A stretch of 64,000 nt of DNA from a virus (IMGVR_UViG_3300025913_000025:43420-107419), one strand, 5' to 3'. Shown: positions 43,889 to 48,371, counted from the first letter of the stretch. Translations and numbers: made by a program. The notes: a model not told the origin generated them from the letters alone.

Positions 43889-44646
43889 TGGACCTGAAAG
43901 CCGCGATCGAATACGTGGTGGGGCTGGCTATATCGAAGCCGATCGAGATTCACTCATCGGCCACCGAGAAAATCTTCCTTCACGACGGCGAGTCAGTGAC
44001 CGTCGAACTTCCGATCACGCCGCGGCGACACGTCGCGCGAACGCTCGACGACATCATCGCGCTTGCCAACCTGTTCAAGGCGGACGGGTACACGCCGGTC
44101 GTCTGGTACGACGAAGGCAAGGTCTGCGTGGTGTTCGACGACGTTGAGTCGCGCCAGAATTTTGCCGCGATGCCGCTTCATAGGTCGGCGGTCTTTGATA
44201 CGGTCAACTCGCTGGCCTCGGGAACATGGTTGAACCAGGTCCATTTTATCCGTCTGCTCCGCGTCGAGCTTCACGGCGCGCAGACGCCGGTGCAACTCCT
44301 GAACCTGGTCCGCGACGTTGTGTTCGAGAATGGCACGATGACCAGCCAGAAGATCGGTCGGCAGGATGAGTCGGTCAGCCGCGCGATCAAGGCCTCGGTC
44401 ACGACGCAGGCCGGTGACATCCCCGAGGAGATCACGCTTCAACTGCCGATCTACTCCAACCCGAACGAGACGGATTCTTACCCGGTCCTCTGCGCGATCG
44501 ACATCAAGCCGAAGGAGGGACTGTTCCAGTTGATCCCGCTTCCGGATCGGATTCAGGCCGCGGTCAACGCGAAGATGAACCAGATCCGCGGGCGGCTGGC
44601 CGAGGGCCTCCAGGAAGGAATTCCATTCTATTACGGTGCCCCGTGA
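43885..44646 (+). CDS. DUF2303/YfdQ-like protein
   Basis: TLDDII...Q..FIRLLR...IPEEITLQLPIY...FYYGAP; paired with the previous gene. Confidence 0.65.
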   Translation: MMDLKAAIEYVVGLAISKPIEIHSSATEKIFLHDGESVTVELPITPRRHVARTLDDIIALANLFKADGYTPVVWYDEGKVCVVFDDVESRQNFAAMPLHRSAVFDTVNSLASGTWLNQVHFIRLLRVELHGAQTPVQLLNLVRDVVFENGTMTSQKIGRQDESVSRAIKASVTTQAGDIPEEITLQLPIYSNPNETDSYPVLCAIDIKPKEGLFQLIPLPDRIQAAVNAKMNQIRGRLAEGLQEGIPFYYGAP

Positions 44647-45014
44647 CGACCGTCGTGAAGGTCACACGCGCGAACCGGGATGAGCTCCGAGCGAATCCCC
44701 TCTTCACCTGGGTCGGCCGCCCATGCGGTCGTCTCGGGATGAAAGGTTCGCTGTTCGGGAATCCCTGGGTCGTCGGCATGATGTGGAACGGGCAGATTAT
44801 CACGGCGGGCGAGGCCGTGAGGAAATTCGACCGCTTGCTCGAACCCGGAAATCCCGACATGAAGGCCGCGGCGATCCGCGCGAACCTGTATAAGCTCCGG
44901 GGCCGCGTGCTAGGATGTGTGTGCTGTGACTATGATGGCCATGGTGAGCCGTCCAAACCTTGTCACGCGGTCAGCCTGGCAAGGGCAGTCGATGCGATGG
45001 AGCTCGAAGACTAA
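44643..45014 (+). CDS. DUF4326-family protein
   Basis: VGRP...FGNPW...LRGRVLGC.C...PCHA..L. Confidence 0.85.
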   Translation: MTTVVKVTRANRDELRANPLFTWVGRPCGRLGMKGSLFGNPWVVGMMWNGQIITAGEAVRKFDRLLEPGNPDMKAAAIRANLYKLRGRVLGCVCCDYDGHGEPSKPCHAVSLARAVDAMELED

Positions 45015-45386: not shown

Positions 45387-45547
45387 CCGGGATTCCGACC
45401 AATGATTCATGGCCTCACGGCCACGAATCATTGGATGCTCGAAACGTGAACCGGTCGCTTTCCGAGACCGGTGAGCATGGCTTCTCGGGGACAAGAGACG
45501 ACCCCCGGGGCGAGGAAGGCCATTCAGCCGGCCGACCTTGGTTTGTG

Positions 45548-45588
45548 ATGGGGCGCCTGGCCTGCAACCGGGCGCCCCATTTCTTTCT
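45548..45588 (+). terminator. Intrinsic terminator directly upstream of the methyltransferase RBS
   Basis: 13-bp stem ATGGGGCGCCTGG/CCGGGCGCCCCAT followed by TTCTTTCT. Confidence 0.7.
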
Positions 45589-45597
45589 GGAGGCAAG

Positions 45598-46914
45598 ATG
45601 TGGATCAATCTCCCGCCGACGTCATCAACGCCATCTCGGTCTGCTCCGGAGGAGCCGGCCTCGAGCTTGGAGTTGCGCTCGCTCTGGGACAACTGCGCAC
45701 TCGATGCTACGTCGAACGGGAAGCCCATGCGATTTCGTACCTTCTTCGGCTTATGGACGCGGACATCCTGGCTCAAGCTCCTGTATGGACGAATCTCCGA
45801 ACCTTCGACGGCAAGCCGTGGCGTGGAAGCGTGGATTGCCTCATGGGCGGTTATCCCTGCCAACCGTTCTCGCTCGCTGGCAGAAGACTTGGACGAGACG
45901 ATCCAAGACATTTGTGGCCGTCGATCCATCGAATCCTTGGCGAAGTCGAACCGGCACTCTGTTTTTTCGAGAACGTGTCCGCCCATCTCAGCCTCGGATT
46001 CGACGAGGTCGCCCGAGACCTTGAAGGATTGGGCTATCAGGTTGCGGCTGGCCTCTGGACGGCGGCGGAAGTTGGCGCGAGCCACAAGCGAGAGCGCCTG
46101 TTCATCCTGGGCTACGCCGATCGCTTCGATTGCCACAGGCGCAGGGCTTCATGGCTCTCAGTCGCCAAATCTACAGACGCAGGTGTCGCTCTGGCCGACG
46201 CCAATAGTCCACGGGAACGCCAACAAGCCGTCAGAGGGAACCGAGAGCGGAACTGGACTGCGAACGGCGGCGGTTCTTTGGACAACGCCGATGGCGCAGG
46301 ACGGAGAATCACCCGAGACGTGGTTGGCCAGGCGGGAGATGCTGAAAGCGGCCGGCCAAAACGGGAACGGCTGCGGCACGCCTCTGGCGATCGCTGCGAT
46401 GATGTGGCCGACACCGACGACAAGCCGCAATCACAACAAGCCCGGCGAGCGAACGCACGGAGGAGCGGGATTACCGGGAGCGGCAACCAACTGGCCGACA
46501 CTAATGGCAAGGGACGGCAAATCCAGTCAGGTGAGCGATGCCACTCTGAACAAGGGTGGTCGCCCGTTGAACGAGATTGCGGTCAATTGGTCTACACCTC
46601 GCGCAACGGACGGCGAGAAGGGCGGACCGAATCAGAGCTTCGGAGCGGGCGGGACACCGTTGCCGACTCAAGCTTGCCAATTTTCCCGCCAGGTCCCGGA
46701 GAGTTCGACCGATGGCGTGACATCCTTGGCGAAGACGAAACGCTCGCTCCGGCTGTCTCCAAGATTTACCTGTTGGCTAATGGGCTGGCCATTGATCGGG
46801 CGAGATTACTCCGTCTGTTCGGAAACGGAGTGGTCCCTTTACAGGCTGCGGTTGCGTTCTGCTCTCTCTGGTCTGCTCTCCGGCAACCCGCCGAGCAACC
46901 AAAGACCCAGTTAG
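45598..46914 (+). CDS. Overlapping-frame methyltransferase partner (beta-like) with a W-x-T-P repeat array and motif IX
   Basis: Six W(A/P/T/S)T(P/L) units and RLSPRFTCWLMGWP; ATG 45598 shares the GGAGG RBS. Confidence 0.75.
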   Translation: MWINLPPTSSTPSRSAPEEPASSLELRSLWDNCALDATSNGKPMRFRTFFGLWTRTSWLKLLYGRISEPSTASRGVEAWIASWAVIPANRSRSLAEDLDETIQDICGRRSIESLAKSNRHSVFSRTCPPISASDSTRSPETLKDWAIRLRLASGRRRKLARATSESACSSWATPIASIATGAGLHGSQSPNLQTQVSLWPTPIVHGNANKPSEGTESGTGLRTAAVLWTTPMAQDGESPETWLARREMLKAAGQNGNGCGTPLAIAAMMWPTPTTSRNHNKPGERTHGGAGLPGAATNWPTLMARDGKSSQVSDATLNKGGRPLNEIAVNWSTPRATDGEKGGPNQSFGAGGTPLPTQACQFSRQVPESSTDGVTSLAKTKRSLRLSPRFTCWLMGWPLIGRDYSVCSETEWSLYRLRLRSALSGLLSGNPPSNQRPS

Positions 46915-46931
46915 GGTTCTGCTTCGACTGA
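45600..46931 (+). CDS. C5 cytosine DNA methyltransferase, catalytic (alpha-like) polypeptide
   Basis: Motif I SVCSGGAGLELG, IV GGYPCQPFS, VI FENV, VIII HKRERLF, X RLFGNGVV. Confidence 0.93.
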   Translation: MDQSPADVINAISVCSGGAGLELGVALALGQLRTRCYVEREAHAISYLLRLMDADILAQAPVWTNLRTFDGKPWRGSVDCLMGGYPCQPFSLAGRRLGRDDPRHLWPSIHRILGEVEPALCFFENVSAHLSLGFDEVARDLEGLGYQVAAGLWTAAEVGASHKRERLFILGYADRFDCHRRRASWLSVAKSTDAGVALADANSPRERQQAVRGNRERNWTANGGGSLDNADGAGRRITRDVVGQAGDAESGRPKRERLRHASGDRCDDVADTDDKPQSQQARRANARRSGITGSGNQLADTNGKGRQIQSGERCHSEQGWSPVERDCGQLVYTSRNGRREGRTESELRSGRDTVADSSLPIFPPGPGEFDRWRDILGEDETLAPAVSKIYLLANGLAIDRARLLRLFGNGVVPLQAAVAFCSLWSALRQPAEQPKTQLGFCFD

Positions 46932-47026
46932 CCCACGCAACGAATGGGGTAGCATCATCGATGTTCGTTGGCTACCATCGGCCAAACGTCAACCGTGATT
47001 CTCTCAAACGACAACGGAGTCAACGA

Positions 47027-47731
47027 ATGCGACGTGTCTTTCTTCTCGCCGCGGTGATCCTCGGAATGGCCGCCCCGGCGCAAGCGCAATGCGGACTGCT
47101 TGGCCGGATCTTCCATCGCCGTTCGCAGGCGCAGGTATCCGCTTGCTACAGCACACGAGCGACGGCTTGCTACAGTTCCGCCCAGGTCCAACCGACCTAC
47201 GCCGCGCCGGCAGTCTACGAGCAGACGTTCCAGGTCGTCACACCGACACCTCAGGCGCTGGCCGTCCCCCAGAAATCGCTTCCCTTACCGACCGCTCCAG
47301 CCAAGAGCACACCGCAGGCTTCGCCCCAGGCCTCCCCGCAGGCGCCGCCGAAGGTTCCCCCGAATTCGCGCCATCGCGGGCATACGGAGCTAGCTCCCCC
47401 TATTGCACCTGCGCCGGTTCCGGTCGTGGTCGTGACGGATCCTTACGGCTTTCACGTCTATCTGAATGACTACCGCGCGCGAGCAGGCCTTCGGCCGCTT
47501 CGTTACTCGGCGCACCTCGCCGGCTGGGCTTATCAGAATAGCCTTCGAGGATTCGGTCATTTCATTCGCGTGGGCCGGCGTCAGAACGCTGCGGCGGGAC
47601 AGGCGAACGCGCAGGCTGTCGCCGCCCAATGGATGAACTCCCCGGCGCATCGAGACGCGATGCTCGACCCGACGGTCACAACCTACGGGATCGCGGTCGC
47701 GAACAATGCCTGGACACTAAATCTTGATTAG
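47027..47731 (+). CDS. Secreted CAP/SCP-domain protein
   Basis: Signal peptide ending AQA; LNDYRARAGLRPL...QWMNSPAHRDAML. Confidence 0.85.
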   Translation: MRRVFLLAAVILGMAAPAQAQCGLLGRIFHRRSQAQVSACYSTRATACYSSAQVQPTYAAPAVYEQTFQVVTPTPQALAVPQKSLPLPTAPAKSTPQASPQASPQAPPKVPPNSRHRGHTELAPPIAPAPVPVVVVTDPYGFHVYLNDYRARAGLRPLRYSAHLAGWAYQNSLRGFGHFIRVGRRQNAAAGQANAQAVAAQWMNSPAHRDAMLDPTVTTYGIAVANNAWTLNLD

Positions 47732-47816: not shown

Positions 47817-48371
47817 ATGGGCATGGTTCGGAAGCATTATCCAGATTTGAACTTCGTTAGGGAATGCTTTGAGGAAAAAGACGGGAGATTGTTTTGGAGA
47901 ACACGGCCGCTTAATCACTTCAAAAGGGAACGGCTTCATCGATCATTCAACACGCGGTGGGCAGGCAAAGAGGCTGGAAGTTGTGGCGTTGATTTTGGAA
48001 AATACGAACGTGTGTCTGCGCACGTTTTGGGTGTTTTTATTTTGCGGTCGACAATTGTTTGGGCTTTCCACAACAACCGCTGGCCAGACGGTGAAATCGA
48101 TCACAAAGACAGCAACACGTTGAACGACAACATCAGCAATCTTCGCCAGGCAACGAAATCACAGAACCAAGCAAATCGTCGTCTTGGACGCAATAGCACT
48201 ACGGGATCCAAGGGCGTTTACAGAGCAGCGACTCCAGGCAAGTGGATTGCCAAAATCGGATTCTCCGGCAGAAAGCGTCACCTCGGAACTTTTGCAACCA
48301 AGGAACTTGCAGAGACGGCGTACATTGAAGCCGCAAAAACCTTCTTTGGCGAGTTTGCAAACCCAGGCTGA
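47817..48371 (+). CDS. HNH endonuclease with AP2 domain
   Basis: IDHKDSNTLNDNISNLR...NQAN...KGV...KWIAKI...HLGTF. Confidence 0.92.
   Translation: MGMVRKHYPDLNFVRECFEEKDGRLFWRTRPLNHFKRERLHRSFNTRWAGKEAGSCGVDFGKYERVSAHVLGVFILRSTIVWAFHNNRWPDGEIDHKDSNTLNDNISNLRQATKSQNQANRRLGRNSTTGSKGVYRAATPGKWIAKIGFSGRKRHLGTFATKELAETAYIEAAKTFFGEFANPG

Follow-up and report, generated by a model that had tools for sequence, protein, structure and literature searches.

The closest described system to the gene that is reported here is M.EcoHK31I, a C5 methyltransferase with a beta chain of 61 amino acids (aa) and an alpha chain of 309 aa. According to PMC2836561, which describes this E. coli HK31 enzyme (of Lee, Kam and Shaw 1995), the beta chain carries motif IX and its coding sequence lies within the alpha gene in a different frame; both of the chains are required for activity, and the target-recognition domain is held by alpha. 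A further precedent concerns the initiation of translation. In Thermus, the rnpA-rpmH start AUGGAUG stands behind one GGAGG and both frames are translated, and in E. coli reporters AUGUG that was placed 4 nucleotides (nt) after GGAGG initiated both frames, with the AUG ahead of the GUG 3.5-fold in vitro and 10-fold in vivo (Kohl et al. 2022, PMC9841429). In this study, we analysed a stretch of 64,000 nt (IMGVR_UViG_3300025913_000025:43420-107419; hereafter, the window) from a viral record of 107,419 bases that was rated complete by CheckV and that originated from a rhizosphere metagenome. Within the window, a C5 methyltransferase gene is open in two frames over its whole length; the ATG frame (45598-46914) is called beta and the GTG frame (45600-46931) alpha, with beta in the +1 frame relative to alpha. 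We consider it rather probable that two full-length chains are made from this gene and form a two-chain C5 methyltransferase.

Two co-extensive frames behind one start site

Both of the frames begin behind a single Shine-Dalgarno sequence, GGAGG (45589-45593; this and all of the features of the gene below are on the plus strand). After the spacer CAAG follows the ambiguous start ATGTG (45598-45602), whose ATG, at a distance of 4 nt, leads to beta and whose GTG, at 6 nt, leads to alpha. This arrangement had been pointed out in an earlier note that was made from the sequence alone, and it was seen at 45589-45602, with the ATG at 45598 and the GTG at 45600. The beta open reading frame (ORF; 45598-46914) encodes 438 aa and ends in a stop, while the alpha ORF (45600-46931) encodes 443 aa, namely the large domain of a C5 methyltransferase, a linker that is predicted to be disordered and motif X, and likewise ends in a stop. 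There are 0 internal stops in alpha and 0 in beta, and 11 in the third frame of the same strand; the two frames are open for about 1.3 kb, as the note had stated, and the overlap is end-to-end, unlike that of the nested M.EcoHK31I beta.

The openness of the frames was compared with what the encoded proteins would impose by themselves. When the alpha protein was held fixed and its synonymous codons were shuffled, 3.9 stops were expected in the beta frame, which was open in 0/300 shuffles; with the beta protein fixed, 12.5 stops were expected in the alpha frame, again open in 0/300. Region-wise shuffles of 18 diverse loci gave, per locus, 1-4 expected stops for the part of beta that lies over the catalytic core of alpha and 3-9 for the part of alpha that lies over the repeats of beta (hereafter, the shadows), against 0 observed, and the third frame of these loci contained 9-29 stops. 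The reasoning of the earlier note that two chance frameshifts cannot explain two open frames is upheld by these shuffles in either direction and by the recurrence of the layout across homologues.

This recurrence was studied in two sets of loci. In 80 homologous loci from bacterial genomes with a guanine-cytosine (GC) content of 0.44-0.70, including cultured isolates and the complete chromosome of Paracoccus yeei, both frames were open from start to end in about 76. The second set comprised 80 loci from IMG/VR that had been seeded from the beta-frame protein P0198 rather than from alpha; here, co-extensive frame pairs were found in 75 of the 77 loci with a recognisable motif IX. The nearest relatives came from Planctomycetota genome bins. 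With a profile of beta, 38,188 cluster representatives were matched at E<=0.001, of which 4,281 also reached E<=1e-30; most of the top hits begin at the conserved methionine, and the databases also hold short beta-like proteins of 240-280 aa (P0198, P0166, P0144 and P0210). The layout is kept by selection in a very large family of phages and prophages. The conservation of frames and start that the note had proposed to check in homologues is a property of the family, and the view of the feature as a peculiarity of one phage has to be corrected. Among the exceptions, one homologue (L055; polished long-read contig) shows a shift of 1 nt and another (L134) is a hybrid of both frames; two more are weighed below. 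The Rhodobacterales-type prophage loci (L003-L080) have a conserved upstream ORF in the third frame, 420-480 codons long, which overlaps the alpha stop-to-stop frame by 80-95 nt; translational coupling to this upstream gene may therefore also act on the dual start there.

The start site is conserved together with the frames, the two starts being interleaved in 51/51 distinct start contexts. Relative to the beta start, the alpha start was located at -4 in 40 of these contexts, at +2 in nine and at +5 in two, and the nearest alpha start was usually the only possible one. The -4 class has the form NTGNATG and the +2 class, to which the window belongs, has the form ATGTG, GTGTG or TTGTG. The beta start was ATG in 44/51 contexts, and a beta-frame stop is often found directly before the conserved start peptide. 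In the window, this N-terminal peptide is MWINLPP (45598-45618); the family pattern is M-x-W-[LI]-[YNH]-x-P, and W2 is invariant in alignment A3. The -4 homologues (40/51) match the Thermus rnpA-rpmH form AUGGAUG, and the GGAGG-4 nt-ATGTG of the window has the geometry of the 'DtoStart 12/14' reporter of PMC9841429, i.e., of a site that was shown to be ambiguous in E. coli. Because the spacing in the window is that of a dual-initiating reporter, it is mechanistically plausible that the choice of the start sets the product ratio, and by this analogy we infer that the ratio of alpha to beta would be set by start-codon choice.

Constraint switches between the frames along the gene

The codon position with the highest variability was determined segment by segment in 50 aligned related loci. 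From nt 0 to 540, it was the third base of the alpha codons and from nt 540 to 990 the third base of the beta codons; in nt 990-1080 the codon positions were about equal and of low variability (0.31, 0.31 and 0.33), and in nt 1080-1170 the third base of alpha was the most variable once more. The pattern is that of alpha for the catalytic core and motif X and that of beta for the repeats and motif IX, and about 90 nt are constrained in both. In the window, the stretch that is constrained in both frames is located at 46683-46866, where the alpha frame encodes FPPGP...LAPA...GNGVVP and the beta frame encodes motif IX together with the tail (SETEWSLYRLRLRSAL); the junction within it is conserved at the nucleotide level. 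The shadows, in turn, are stop-free, yet without conservation at the protein level. The regions that the earlier note had described as filler, i.e., the middle of the GTG frame and the first half of the ATG frame, show no coding-type substitution periodicity in those frames, and residues 188-356 of alpha were predicted by AlphaFold2 with a predicted local distance difference test (pLDDT) value of <40 and without secondary structure. These results show that both of the frames are kept open by selection and that the constraint switches between the frames along the gene.

The alpha chain contains the motifs that the note had assigned to the GTG frame: motif I (45639-45671), motif IV (45846-45872), motif VI (45963-45977), motif VIII (46083-46115) and, after a long interval, motif X (GNGVVPLQAA; 46821-46850). 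C5 methyltransferases are recognised by motifs I (FxGxG-like), IV (PCQ), VI (ENV) and VIII (QxRxR) in a single chain with a Rossmann-like large-domain fold, and by motif X (GNxVxP) in that same chain; all of these are present in alpha. The catalytic core with motifs I-VIII covers 45639-46115, where the beta frame is a stop-free shadow. The Pfam family PF00145 matched alpha residues 11-179 only (E 4e-24; profile positions 3-168 of 324), an hhalign comparison of alpha with motifs I-VIII of E. coli Dcm gave a probability of 97.6%, and by fold (Foldseek) alpha was closest to M.HaeIII (1dct; E 1.9e-12), followed by M.HhaI and DNMT1, with E values of about 1e-12 to 1e-9. In the AlphaFold2 model, residues 1-178 were confident and a C-terminal helix after motif X (residues 411-428) had a pLDDT of approximately 83-88. 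In motif X, in which GNGVVP corresponds to alpha residues 408-413, G408, N409, V411, V412 and P413 are invariant among the 34 sequences of alignment A2. The linker (residues 179-356; 46134-46667), which is the shadow of the beta repeats, is stop-free, unconserved as a protein and predicted to be disordered. No target-recognition domain or motif IX was present between motifs VIII and X of alpha, where residues 179-356 have the periodicity of the other frame; as this stretch is neither conserved nor folded, alpha has no recognition domain or motif IX of its own. On the basis of the structural models, alpha is a large domain whose small domain is replaced by a loop.

The beta chain carries six WxTP units (WATP, WPTP, WTTP, WPTP, WPTL and WSTP; 46108-46599), which probably represent the target-recognition part, and a motif IX-like segment, RLSPRFTCWLMGWP (46750-46791), whose family pattern LNPxFxxWLMGWP is nearly invariant. 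Both the repeats and this segment were found in the ATG frame, as the note had claimed; the identity of the segment as motif IX, which it had also claimed, aligned only weakly. The only hhalign alignment of beta with Dcm (P 0.023, probability 2%) sets LNPxFVEWLMGWP on the Dcm motif IX, RRLTPRECARLMGFE, and, in the same weak alignment, the last WxTP unit, WxTPTARDxKDG, on RTLSARYYKDG just upstream of it.

The association of the two chains was addressed by a complex prediction of alpha with beta residues 165-438 and with three controls, using a mark that is reached by 58/80 solved complexes and 2/110 mismatched pairs. The alpha/beta pair scored 0.88, compared with 0.00 for the best of the three controls, and across the runs the contact agreement was at least 38% and the pLDDT of the partner was at least 44. 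At the level of prediction, the heterodimer that the note had proposed is supported by this controlled run. The confident interface was predicted between alpha residues 357-422 (the FPPGP segment and motif X), along with parts of motifs I and VIII, and beta residues 383-427 (motif IX and the tail); the segments that are predicted to be in contact are encoded by the same ~100 bases in two frames.

We propose that the gene would be read in two frames from one ambiguous start, which would yield two full-length polypeptides. Alpha, from the GTG at 45600, would provide the catalytic large domain with motifs I-VIII that binds S-adenosylmethionine, then a disordered linker of approximately 180 residues that would be constrained only to stay open, and then the FPPGP segment and motif X. 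Beta, from the ATG at 45598, would consist of the conserved short start peptide, an unconstrained shadow of the catalytic core, the six WxTP repeats, the segment LNPxFxxWLMGWP that resembles motif IX and, at its C-terminus, a helix. With their C-terminal parts, alpha and beta may pack together and rebuild a complete enzyme, as in M.EcoHK31I. In this model, we infer that both of the proteins are made, that they bind each other and that their complex methylates DNA. For the family as a whole, which comprises tens of thousands of 50%-identity clusters, the case is evenly balanced that both chains of a heterodimeric cytosine methyltransferase are encoded on the same 1-1.4 kb by co-extensive ORFs with one ambiguous start, with the contacting C-terminal segments in the same bases and with a long unconstrained shadow in each chain.

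Alternative explanations and points of doubt

Two open frames could also arise in an artefact or in a decaying gene, through two compensating indel errors or mutations, with the open frames as an accident of high GC content; the window has a GC content of 60%, there are long spurious ORFs nearby on both strands, and the 1-nt shift of L055 occurs in a polished contig. However, the layout is present in the complete genomes of cultured bacteria and phages and at a GC content of 0.46, the layout of the window appeared in 0/300 shuffles and the frame-specific substitution pattern is that of ongoing purifying selection. Moreover, a Logan contig from the sole public run with this DNA (DNA run X1) had no insertion or deletion over 45400-47100 at a mean word depth of 14.2; since this run may be the source sample, the contig checks the assembly and not the reads, and at that level the compensating indels for which the earlier note had asked the reads to be inspected (near 46110 and 46790) were not found. 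No RNA run that contains the stretch was listed. We regard an artefact or decay as next to impossible, and a sequencing error is ruled out by the conservation in homologues, the shuffles and the Logan contig. It is also conceivable that the ribosome undergoes two programmed frameshifts, of +1 behind motif VIII and of -1 behind motif IX, and makes a single polypeptide; this would restore the order of motifs I-VIII, recognition domain, IX and X. The conserved segments, when joined, do have this canonical order, and in the window motifs IX and X are then 12 residues apart, which is a normal distance; in one homologue (L020) the alpha linker contains four stops while motif X is intact. A ribosome that switches frames would not need open shadows, and the stop-free shadows, against 1-9 stops that are expected per locus, count against this explanation; it also leaves the conserved beta start and N-terminal peptide unexplained and would require a third shift. 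There was no stop or conserved shift signal at the first junction, and no conserved slippery heptamer was found at the frame junctions of the 18 loci, of which only one had an X XXY YYZ heptamer at the second junction. In-frame fusions in the databases change frame at differing points, like sporadic indels. Taken together, frameshifting appears quite improbable. Three database proteins (P0148, P0192 and P0240) combine PF00145 with WxTP repeats and were considered as an ancestral single-chain architecture; their switch points vary (after motif VI or inside motif VIII) and they are without motif X, and they were read as the result of sporadic indels.

A further explanation accepts that both frames are translated but assigns beta a role other than that of the missing half of the enzyme, either as an overprinted gene for a regulator or inhibitor or as a product made mainly from internal starts, with alpha acting alone or with a host factor. 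It draws on the lack of a significant similarity of beta to known domains and of a confident fold of beta alone, on the statement in PMC2836561 that the beta of M.EcoHK31I can start at internal methionines, and on Burkholderia phage phi1026b, in which the beta frame continues into a ParB-like gene, so that other partners are possible. Against it, alpha has no conserved or folded segment between motifs VIII and X, the conserved C-terminal part of beta is predicted with high confidence to lie on the motif X region of alpha while the controls gave 0.00, and the only Dcm alignment sets the beta motif on the Dcm motif IX. The openness of the 5' end and the conserved start argue against a purely internal start. 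We consider this explanation unlikely, though it is given more weight than frameshifting, and favour the two-chain enzyme.

Several observations weigh against the two-chain enzyme itself. A profile search of beta against Pfam and the PDB sequences gave no significant match, the best hits being at the chance level (MS2 coat protein, E 0.019; picornavirus VP1, E 0.2-0.3), and beta alone was poorly folded by AlphaFold2 (mean pLDDT 45; predicted template modelling score 0.20). The assignment of motif IX to beta is weak, as it depends on one weak profile alignment and a likeness of pattern. In the complex prediction, the fold of the partner was itself uncertain, and the high score may be due in part to what the model has learned from single-chain C5 methyltransferases, whose motifs IX and X are in contact within one chain. 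As the host is probably not E. coli, the calibration of the start site is an analogy only. Beta would also carry approximately 165 apparently meaningless residues, which an internal start would avoid. Finally, there are two exceptional homologues. L020 has four stops in the linker of alpha, with a complete beta and with motifs I-VIII and X that look intact, and represents either decay or a three-piece variant. In L137, there is one stop in the beta shadow, i.e., in the first half of beta. With respect to their organisation, L020 (an Alphaproteobacteria genome bin, JAGWIK010000013.1) has an ATG after the last linker stop and ahead of motif X, and L137 (IMGVR_UViG_2839335573_000001) is a compact gene, with an alpha of 299 aa with a short linker, close in size to the alpha of M.EcoHK31I, and a beta with a single WxTP unit.

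Annotation, neighbourhood and comparison with known systems

In bacterial and phage annotation, long overlaps on the same strand are usually dismissed, and for this gene the annotation pipelines keep a single ORF, not always the same one. The beta-frame proteins in the databases are mostly named 'hypothetical' in their sources. In Burkholderia phage phi1026b (L163, NC_005284.1), whose start reads GGGAGG-CGGT-GTGAATG, the alpha frame alone is annotated. In the same phage (1096-3213), the beta frame stays open as far as the next gene, for a ParB-like partition protein, and continues into it in frame as a 706-codon stop-to-stop ORF; this read-on probably explains the label 'chromosome partitioning protein' in related Burkholderia phages. 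Conversely, in Acidovorax phage Alfacinha3 (L164, OP131587.1; 1099-2265), the protein gp46, annotated as a 'cytosine-specific methyltransferase', is the beta ORF, with the start MWLYIPSNF, and its frame is not the one with the catalytic motifs. The nearest relative of alpha (P0018, from ENA) and the nearest relative of beta (P0122, from JGI) both have a longest contig of 8,118 bases, which may be the same contig. If so, two pipelines have called different frames of one gene.

If the two-chain enzyme is real, thousands of phage 'orphan methyltransferases' would be misdescribed and their specificity determinants would lie in a protein that is not annotated. The finding is also relevant for predicting the host restriction systems that a phage can evade. 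The family would then offer a natural system in which ambiguous initiation, dual-coding evolution and the amount of meaningless polypeptide that a protein can tolerate could be studied. It would also be a natural case of a subunit ratio that is set by start-codon competition, and, among the conserved same-strand dual-coding genes of bacterial viruses, its gene would be the longest known.

Upstream of the gene, a terminator-like GC-rich hairpin is followed by a T-rich tail (45547-45581, plus strand; 14 pairs, of which 10 are G-C); it is a consensus match only, and terminator-type matches in the region were as numerous in shuffled sequence as in the real one. Its 3' end is 8 nt upstream of the Shine-Dalgarno sequence, and with such a hairpin ahead of the gene, expression of the methyltransferase may need read-through or gating at the RNA level. 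Further upstream, at 45430-45434, the Logan contig reads GCACC and the window ATTGG, the only differences listed in the 1.7 kb compared; these fall within an inverted repeat (~45400-45435, right arm) that follows the preceding ORF. Of the neighbouring genes, one (44643-45014) encodes a DUF4326 protein, one (46961-47731) a protein with a CAP (cysteine-rich secretory protein) domain and a signal-like segment at its N-terminus, and one (47817-48371) a homing-endonuclease-like protein with HNH_3 and AP2.

Our literature searches gave only papers on M.EcoHK31I and the paper on ambiguous starts, and no published description of this layout was found among them. Compared with the canonical single-chain C5 methyltransferases M.HhaI, M.HaeIII and E. 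coli Dcm, alpha has the same motifs I, IV, VI, VIII and X and the same large-domain fold; here, however, no frame holds all of the motifs and the small domain is missing from alpha. Another comparison is offered by Rz/Rz1 of phage lambda, in which one gene lies in the +1 frame of another and its product binds that of the enclosing gene. Unlike the case here, Rz1 is short and fully nested, has its own internal start and is not part of an enzyme that is split by domains. The start site resembles the ambiguous start sites of PMC9841429, among them AUGGAUG in Thermus and AUGUG and GUGUG in E. coli, where two start codons that differ in frame and lie 2 or 4 nt from each other share a single Shine-Dalgarno sequence. 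The second ORF at those sites is either short or a nested one without functional relation to the first, whereas here both ORFs are 1.3 kb long and their products probably belong to one enzyme. The likeness to M.EcoHK31I, as far as its description in PMC2836561 goes, is that of a C5 methyltransferase whose second chain is encoded in another frame of the gene for the first. The precedent that the earlier note had cited applies to a second chain in an alternative frame that carries motif IX and does not extend to the recognition domain, which is in alpha in M.EcoHK31I and probably in beta here, where alpha has an unconstrained linker from motif VIII to motif X and beta contains the repeats. Within the same description, the beta of M.EcoHK31I is small and nested in the alpha gene, whereas the window has two co-extensive ORFs, of 438 and 443 aa, with starts 2 nt apart.

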